From assembly GCF_002854065.1 (NCBI RefSeq), contig NZ_CP024147.1: a stretch of DNA of 64,000 bases, one strand, 5' to 3'. A model generated the notes under the pieces. It was not told the origin of the DNA, searched no databases, and saw only the letters and a program-made list of their open reading frames with translations. The stretch is from Escherichia coli. Lineage in GTDB: Bacteria > Pseudomonadota > Gammaproteobacteria > Enterobacterales > Enterobacteriaceae. Each line of letters begins with the position of its first letter. Position 1 is the first letter of the stretch. Positions 57,547-58,235 of this stretch are shown here, one piece after another. The position numbers and the translations under genes were made by a program.

Positions 57547-57564
57547 GTAAACACTAATGTTTAC
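57547..57564. promoter_or_regulatory. Inverted repeat GTAAACA-ctaa-TGTTTAC in the hicA promoter region (candidate HicB operator)
   Basis: Perfect 7-bp arms directly upstream of a TATACT -10-like hexamer and the hicA start. Function is inferred, not demonstrated. Confidence 0.45.
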
Positions 57565-57596
57565 TTTGTTGATATACTCAGCGGCAGGGAGGCGAT

Positions 57597-57773
57597 GTGA
57601 AACAAAGCGAGTTCAGACGTTGGCTCGAATCTCAGGGCGTCGATGTAGCGAATGGCAGCAACCATTTGAAACTCAGGTTTCATGGGATGCGCAGTGTCAT
57701 GCCGCGTCACCCCTGCGATGAGATTAAAGAACCATTGCGTAAAGCAATCCTGAAACAACTCGGTTTGAGTTAA
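57597..57773 (+). CDS. hicA: HicA mRNA-interferase toxin (type II toxin-antitoxin)
   Basis: 58-codon ORF with GTG start, MKQSEFRRWLESQGVDVANGSNHLKLRFHGMRSVMPRHP...; below the ORF-track cutoff. Confidence 0.85.
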   Translation: MKQSEFRRWLESQGVDVANGSNHLKLRFHGMRSVMPRHPCDEIKEPLRKAILKQLGLS

Positions 57774-57797
57774 TCGCCAATTAAAAAGGTTAATGAC

Positions 57798-58235
57798 ATG
57801 CGAGAGACAGTCGAAATTATGCGTTATCCCGTCACTCTTACACCCGCGCCGGAAGGCGGTTATATGGTTTCTTTTGTGGATATCCCTGAAGCGTTGACGC
57901 AGGGCGAAACTGTCGCTGAAGCGATGGAAGCGGCAAAAGATGCTTTACTGACCGCATTTGATTTTTATTTTGAAGATAACGAGCTTATCCCGTTACCTTC
58001 GCCATTAAATAGTCATGATCACTTTATTGAAGTACCTTTGAGCGTCGCCTCTAAGGTATTGCTGTTAAATGCTTTTTTACAGTCAGAAATCACTCAGCAA
58101 GAGTTAGCCAGGCGAATTGGCAAACCTAAACAGGAGATTACTCGTCTATTTAACTTGCATCATGCGACAAAAATCGACGCCGTCCAGCTCGCGGCAAAGG
58201 CGCTTGGCAAAGAGTTATCGCTGGTGCTGGTTTAA
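57798..58235 (+). CDS. hicB: HicB antitoxin (RNase H-like fold with C-terminal DNA-binding domain)
   Basis: 145-aa ORF (alternative start MRYPV at 57819) immediately downstream of hicA. Confidence 0.85.
   Translation: MRETVEIMRYPVTLTPAPEGGYMVSFVDIPEALTQGETVAEAMEAAKDALLTAFDFYFEDNELIPLPSPLNSHDHFIEVPLSVASKVLLLNAFLQSEITQQELARRIGKPKQEITRLFNLHHATKIDAVQLAAKALGKELSLVLV

Follow-up and report, generated by a model that had tools for sequence, protein, structure and literature searches.

An inverted repeat upstream of Escherichia coli hicAB as the probable hicO operator of the HicB-repressed promoter P2, and its distribution in Enterobacterales

The chromosomal hicAB operon of Escherichia coli K-12 is transcribed from two promoters, an arrangement worked out by Turnbull & Gerdes (2017) and summarized consistently in later reviews (PMC6957337, PMC8138530, PMC11594946). 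As these secondary accounts describe it, the upstream promoter P1 carries a CRP-S site, depends on Sxy, escapes repression by HicB and yields a transcript from which both HicA and HicB are produced (PMC7167474; PMC6957337; PMC8138530). The second promoter, P2, is under HicB repression and adjoins the ribosome-binding site of hicA; the transcript made from it is described as "truncated at the RBS" and yields HicB only (PMC7167474; PMC6957337; PMC8138530). The two start sites are given as 54 bp apart (PMC7730913). Repression is attributed in the summaries to hicO, an inverted-repeat operator within P2 that is bound by HicB dimers (PMC10865869; PMC11594946), and excess HicA is reported to derepress P2 (PMC6957337; PMC8138530; PMC11594946). 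HicB alone binds the promoter fragment weakly in vitro, according to the review literature (PMC11594946).

Here we analyze the hicAB locus within a 64,000-nucleotide stretch of E. coli DNA (the window). A first-pass annotation, made from the sequence alone, had reported a hicAB toxin–antitoxin pair preceded by a perfect 7-bp inverted repeat and had proposed the repeat as a plausible operator for HicB autorepression. We assign a probability of about 0.88 to the identification of this repeat with hicO, through which HicB represses promoter P2 of the chromosomal hicAB operon in E. coli. As a HicB operator, the palindrome is a rediscovery of a published and already known element: experiments in K-12 have established the locus, both of its promoters, the operator, and how derepression works, and the regulatory DNA is identical here. 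The present analysis adds a corrected anatomy, with the operator placed over the -35 and spacer region and a supposed 13-codon upstream reading frame removed, a cross-genus consensus for the box associated with helix-turn-helix HicB proteins, and evidence for loss of the toxin.

The hicAB locus and its proteins

A 941-bp query around hicAB finds a match in 5415 of 5426 complete E. coli genomes, and strain CUWW06 is the only one among the complete genomes listed that is 100% identical to it. The genes here are arranged as in K-12 MG1655, in the order rlhA (ydcP)-yncJ-hicA-hicB-ydcR. Across the yncJ–hicA intergenic region and hicA together there is a single base difference from MG1655, and it falls within hicA; the intergenic region itself shows zero differences, so the experimental work on K-12 applies directly to the present DNA. 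The genes hicA (57597–57773) and hicB (57819–58235) lie on the same strand with the toxin gene first and a 45-nt gap between them, as expected of a type II toxin–antitoxin operon, and RefSeq annotates the pair likewise in thousands of genomes. The locus is the well-studied E. coli chromosomal hicAB type II toxin–antitoxin operon, an assignment already made in the first pass and borne out by the Pfam families, the match to PDB 6HPB, and the K-12 annotation. An Rfam scan of positions 57100–58400 returned no match above gathering scores. A weak match to naRNA4 at 57105–57141, between rlhA and yncJ (28.8 bits against a gathering score of 59.5), may represent a REP-type repeat.

The hicA gene, on the plus strand, encodes an mRNA interferase toxin and begins with a GTG codon followed through 58 codons to its stop, just as first annotated. 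Its start coincides with that of K-12 b4532, and the GTG is kept in enterobacterial orthologues. The ORF list, Pfam, PDB, and the K-12 annotation all agree on the gene. The protein scores 29.4 bits against Pfam PF07927 (HicA_toxin; cut-off 27), which places it in that family, and 57 of its 58 residues are identical to chain A of PDB 6HPB. It retains the NGSNH motif with His23, the residue named as catalytic in HicA (PMC8138530). The one departure from K-12 is R31M, produced by an AGG to ATG change in codon 31 (57687–57689). Position 31 is Arg or Lys in every intact orthologue examined and Met in the present HicA, and the substitution could weaken the toxin.

The hicB reading frame, also on the plus strand, ends at 58235, in agreement with the earlier call, and encodes the antitoxin and repressor; the K-12 annotation reads "antitoxin / DNA-binding transcriptional repressor HicB". 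Its start is ambiguous. The ATG at 57819 gives the 138-residue protein of the K-12 annotation and PDB 6HPB, and an in-frame ATG at 57798 gives a 145-residue form that was crystallized as PDB 6U0I. HicB matches Pfam PF15919 (HicB_lk_antitox) at 32.8 bits (cut-off 27) and PF01381 (HTH_3) at 31.4 bits (cut-off 23), and so belongs to the helix-turn-helix class of HicB proteins. It is nearly identical to PDB entries 6HPB (chain B), 6HPC, and 6U0I (E about 1e-86 to 1e-90), and differs from K-12 HicB by a Met to Leu change at the third residue from the C-terminus. The HTH_3 match spans residues 95–141 of the 145-residue form (58080–58220, plus strand). Across all orthologues retaining the box described below, the HicB segment KQEITRLF.L.H.TKID, through which the helix-turn-helix presumably recognizes DNA, hardly varies.

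The inverted repeat and the promoters upstream of hicA

The repeat is an 18-bp box, GTAAACA-ctaa-TGTTTAC, at 57547–57564. Its arms occupy 57547–57553 and 57558–57564 and form the perfect 7-bp repeat originally reported; a 4-nt spacer separates them, and the centers of the half-sites lie 11 bp apart. This is the only perfect short-spacer inverted repeat of at least 7 bp in the yncJ–hicA intergenic region, and it lies in what is probably the HicB-repressed promoter adjoining the hicA start, where hicO is described. From its position, its conservation, and secondary accounts of the literature, we strongly infer that the palindrome is the published hicO. A literature search by the literal operator sequence gave no match.

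Downstream of the box, the sequence TGaTATACT at 57570–57578 (plus strand; TG at 57570–57571, hexamer at 57573–57578) fits an extended -10 element, with a TGn followed by a TATAAT-like hexamer and no recognizable -35, and we take it as the probable P2. An extended -10 promoter recognized by sigma-70 can work without a -35 element. Escherichia, Citrobacter, and Raoultella all have TATACT or TATAAT as the hexamer here. Transcription from it is predicted to start at about 57584–57586, 1–3 nt before the hicA Shine-Dalgarno sequence GGGAGG, which inspection of the sequence places at 57587–57592 (plus strand), 4 nt before the GTG. A G-rich run of this kind (GGAGG, GGGGG) is found there in every orthologous locus. 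The predicted start thus agrees with the published description of the P2 transcript as truncated at the RBS. Measured from this start, the box covers about -38 to -21. It ends 8 nt upstream of TATACT, so that the overlap between repeat and -10 element reported in the first-pass annotation is not found; the box lies over the -35 and spacer region rather than the -10. The central idea of that annotation, a HicB autorepression operator, stands on the identity of this DNA with K-12 and on the published hicO. Its promoter layout does not: besides the misplaced overlap, it pictured a single promoter and missed the published mechanism in which P1 serves HicA and an operator-controlled P2 serves HicB only.

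P1 is harder to place. A consensus search of the region for its CRP-S site gave best candidates with 3–4 mismatches out of 10, none of them convincing, and for this reason we placed the promoter by a conserved GCTAT motif and the published 54-bp spacing. In the loci linked to ydcR, this motif lies about 24–26 nt upstream of the box. The resulting candidate, TGcTATTTT at 57518–57526 (plus strand), is tentatively assigned as the P1 -10, with a predicted start at about 57533. The candidate -10 elements of P1 and P2 are 52 bp apart, near the published start-site separation of 54 bp without matching it exactly, and the difference is within start-site tolerance. A consensus promoter and terminator scan called neither P1 nor P2, since it requires a -35 element and both candidates lack one.

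The first pass had also listed a 13-codon reading frame from an ATG at 57557 to the hicA start, which might influence hicA translation. This frame does not exist and arose from a frame-reading error. The ATG lies 40 nt before the GTG and is therefore out of frame with hicA; it opens 54 codons, overlaps hicA, and stops at 57719–57721. The frame that stops at the TGA at 57598–57600, overlapping the hicA GTG, starts instead at GTG 57517 and makes no use of ATG 57557. We considered the 54-codon frame as a gene or regulatory reading frame in its own right and set it aside. It is open for 54–71 codons in three of four other Escherichia loci (L002, L003, and L005, but not L004), collapses to 6–23 codons outside Escherichia, and takes its ATG from the right half of the operator. 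It is probably not a gene, although translation from this ATG could interfere with initiation at hicA. On a P1 transcript, a GGAGG at 57543–57547, 9 nt before the ATG, would make a well-placed initiation site.

Two further features surround the hicA start. The sequence ATGTGA at 57595–57600 forms a minimal start-stop (ATG-TGA) that overlaps the GTG at 57597, its ATG lying 2 nt from the Shine-Dalgarno sequence. A second perfect 7-bp inverted repeat, CTTTGTT/AACAAAG (57564–57570 and 57601–57607), brackets the P2 -10, the Shine-Dalgarno sequence, and the hicA start codon. Its CTTTGTT arm is present on P1 transcripts only, and the pairing is unused in the minimum-free-energy fold of the leader.

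Conservation of the box and other readings of the repeat

To place the box in a wider context, we scanned for HicB with one genome per species, which gave 18 loci, and searched for the box in the 14 related loci with a hicA match, using the E. coli arms as query and allowing at most two arm mismatches out of 14. Thirteen of the 14 carry a match 39–72 nt upstream of the hicA start, typically at about -50, where an arithmetic estimate puts the chance expectation at about 1e-3 per locus. The box-bearing genera include Citrobacter, Raoultella, Superficieibacter, Pantoea, Serratia, and Brenneria (B. salicis), in which the flanking DNA cannot be aligned with that of E. coli. The conserved form is GTAAnCA-N4-TGnTTAC, and the derived pattern GTAANCANNNNYGNTKAC is confined to the site upstream of hicA in all locus DNA searched. 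Among 17 distinct boxes, eight of the 18 columns are invariant (G1, T2, A3, A4, and A7 on the left; G13, T15, and A17 on the right) and three more are nearly so. Half-site position 5 varies independently of its partner, and covariation between the arms is no better than in shuffles (161/500). Conservation therefore rests on the sequence of the half-sites and not on their pairing, a pattern expected of a site for a dimeric protein rather than of a hairpin.

The consensus holds for the close family only (HicB at least 60% identical), since the box is absent from the more distant HicB-HTH loci of Arsenophonus and Geminocystis. A HicB-HTH homologue encoded on a Variovorax plasmid, 50% identical, is associated with a different palindrome, GGGCGAA-N4-TTCGCCC, that has the same 7-N4-7 geometry.

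These data bear on three other readings of the repeat. It might act as RNA, folding into a hairpin within the 5' leader of P1 mRNA and affecting how stable that mRNA is or how well hicA, or the frame opened by AUG 57557, is translated, instead of or besides binding HicB. The hairpin can be extended to about 10 pairs with G-U pairing (GAGGUAAACA/UGUUUACUUU), remains as the sole element when the 57535–57640 leader is reduced to its centroid structure, and would sequester both GGAGG 57543–57547 and AUG 57557; moreover, pairing, counting G-U, is still possible in 92% of the cells of the cross-genus alignment. The AU-rich 7-bp stem is weak, however, and the leader folds no more stably than its shuffles (z = -0.69). 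The alignment contains only one double change, and what it preserves is the identity of the invariant columns rather than their pairing. Furthermore, in loci that carry two boxes, a box lies between the -35 and the -10 and would not be transcribed from that promoter. Leader folding and covariation thus lend this reading no support, and we regard a role as RNA structure as improbable.

A palindrome without function, with HicB binding elsewhere in the 147-bp promoter fragment, has the frequency of such repeats in its favor. In the window, 91 inverted repeats have perfect 7-bp arms and spacers of 0–10 nt, compared with about 50 in random sequence (Markov-1 sequences generated from the window), and about 0.17 would be expected by chance in an intergenic region of 221 bp. 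By itself, a 7-bp repeat is statistically unremarkable, and the significance of this one derives from cross-genus conservation and the literature, not from repeat statistics. Against chance, at least seven genera with otherwise unrelated upstream DNA retain the 18-bp box equally far from hicA, and it occurs nowhere else in those loci. Of the inverted repeats near the hicA start, it alone agrees with hicO as published. A palindrome arising by accident is accordingly very improbable here. The box pattern itself has a single match in the 64-kb window, where 0.07 would be expected with one mismatch allowed. We give equally little weight to the idea that the box serves another dimeric regulator, such as CRP/Sxy or the neighboring GntR-type YdcR. 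A response of the operon to CRP-Sxy is established (PMC8138530; PMC6957337), and Escherichia, Citrobacter, and Raoultella all have hicAB linked to ydcR. Yet the box resembles neither TGTGA-N6-TCACA nor TGCGA-N6-TCGCA, the best matches to which in the region (3–4 mismatches out of 10) lie elsewhere, and the literature assigns the CRP-S site to the upstream P1 (PMC11594946; PMC8138530). The box also accompanies hicAB in Pantoea, Serratia, Brenneria, and Superficieibacter, in which hicAB has no adjacent ydcR.

Read as a HicB operator, the box occurs in two arrangements. Loci linked to ydcR (Escherichia, Citrobacter, and Raoultella) have a single box, the counterpart of the proximal one in the second arrangement, and downstream of it a -10 from which transcription would start at the ribosome-binding site. 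Loci not linked to ydcR (Pantoea, Serratia, B. salicis, and Superficieibacter) have two boxes 21 bp apart, or two helical turns, in a tandem region at about 2204–2243 of the extracted loci (L006, L011, L012, L013, and L014). There the right arm of the distal box supplies a TTGAC -35 and the right arm of the proximal box, together with the following TAT, supplies a TACTAT -10, with a 17-bp spacer between them. The -10 of the ydcR-linked loci lies 11 bp further downstream than that of the two-box loci, and the transcript from a two-box promoter would carry the complete hicA leader. It is conceivable, though we would put it at slightly less than an even chance, that the box is a conserved operator for helix-turn-helix HicB across Enterobacterales in these two architectures, and that the antitoxin-only P2 with its separate P1 was derived by rewiring what had been an ordinary autoregulated promoter, alongside recurrent hicA decay in Escherichia and one Citrobacter locus. 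A literature search covering open reviews and papers found no comparison of the box in two architectures. The tandem boxes in these five loci are followed by a strongly conserved leader, CATGTTCAACAGA.

Decay of hicA, and hicAB among related operons

About 1198 of the 5415 complete E. coli genomes lack an 80% match to the locus. The low-match strains sampled (UPEC and APEC; for example, L023 from UPEC 85.0412) have a 445-bp deletion equivalent to positions 57552–57996 of the window. It begins after GGTAAA, within the left arm of hicO, and extends to about codon 60 of hicB; P2, hicA, and the N-terminal portion of HicB, which binds HicA, are lost, and a hicB remnant that encodes the helix-turn-helix stays beside ydcR. 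In a second group of E. coli, represented by O91 RM7190 (L024), a 22-bp deletion in hicA (equivalent to about 57714–57735) has produced an annotated frameshifted pseudogene; hicB and hicO are intact, with one change in the hicO spacer. Three further loci have a broken hicA and an open hicB, through frameshifts in L002 and L008 and a stop at codon 9 in L004. The toxin gene appears to decay repeatedly while the antitoxin is kept. Frequent loss of or damage to the toxin with persistence of hicB, and in some lineages of hicO, bears on the debate over selection for chromosomal toxin–antitoxin loci.

Several individual loci show further variation. In L004 (Escherichia strain SCPM-O-B-8794), at about 2242–2280, an 11-bp deletion removes TTTGTTGATAT and alters P2, joining the right arm of the operator to the remaining ACT of the -10; the premature hicA stop is in this same locus. 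Brenneria roseae (L015) has hicAB without the upstream HicB box and with His23 of HicA replaced by Tyr, and its locus is possibly degenerating. Three Citrobacter loci (L016, L017, and L019) contain only C-terminal hicB fragments beside ydcR, in parallel with the E. coli deletion variant.

For the intact operon, the anatomy described above suggests how repression and its relief would work. In K-12, as the review summarizes it, HicB dimers bind hicO and repress P2, and excess HicA releases HicB (PMC11594946). On the present DNA, the two C-terminal helix-turn-helix domains of a HicB dimer would each sit on one GTAAnCA half-site; with the half-site centers 11 bp, or one helical turn, apart, both domains should lie on the same face of the DNA. 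Because the box occupies the place of the -35 hexamer and spacer, bound HicB would be expected to block RNA polymerase. When HicA exceeds HicB, the HicB-DNA complex would be destabilized and P2 would fire, as published. A P2 transcript starting 1–3 nt upstream of the Shine-Dalgarno sequence should be unable to support efficient translation of hicA and would give HicB only. In this step the truncation at the ribosome-binding site is published, and the start at about 57585 is predicted from the sequence. The HicB-only output of P2 would then bring back an excess of antitoxin, with HicA supplied from the upstream CRP-S/Sxy-dependent P1, which according to the published work is unrepressed by HicB.

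The closest described system is the P2/hicO module of E. coli K-12 hicAB itself (Turnbull & Gerdes 2017, Mol Microbiol 104:781; PDB 6HPB), with the same regulatory DNA, gene order, and proteins. The two differ in coding changes only, R31M in hicA and the Met to Leu change in hicB, the regulatory region being unchanged. Among other operons, E. coli mqsRA also has the toxin gene first and a folded helix-turn-helix antitoxin that represses alone; its toxin likewise destabilizes the antitoxin-DNA complex and has no corepressor role, and extra promoters secure an excess of antitoxin (PMC8138530; PMC7167474). MqsA, an HTH-XRE antitoxin, binds palindromes in its own promoter, but the protein families and the palindrome differ from those of hicAB, and the extra mqsA promoters are constitutive and lie inside the toxin gene, whereas P2 of hicAB lies upstream and is autoregulated.

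Other HicAB systems share the logic of autorepression. In HicA3B3 of Yersinia pestis (BS1/BS2) and HicAB of Burkholderia pseudomallei (S1-S2), HicB represses its own synthesis through palindromic operators that overlap promoter elements, and excess HicA weakens binding (PMC11594946). Their two-operator layout resembles the two-box loci of Pantoea, Serratia, and Brenneria. The HicB proteins of Y. pestis and B. pseudomallei are, unlike the helix-turn-helix HicB of E. coli, tetrameric ribbon-helix-helix proteins with unrelated operator sequences. We know of no report of a second, antitoxin-only promoter for either of these systems.

The toxTA operon of Haemophilus influenzae shares the two-promoter design of hicAB, with an upstream promoter dependent on CRP-S and Sxy and a downstream promoter that is repressed by the antitoxin and gives antitoxin only (PMC6957337). 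It differs from hicAB in its proteins, which are unrelated and include a RelE/ParE-type toxin, and in its P2, which lies inside the toxin gene.
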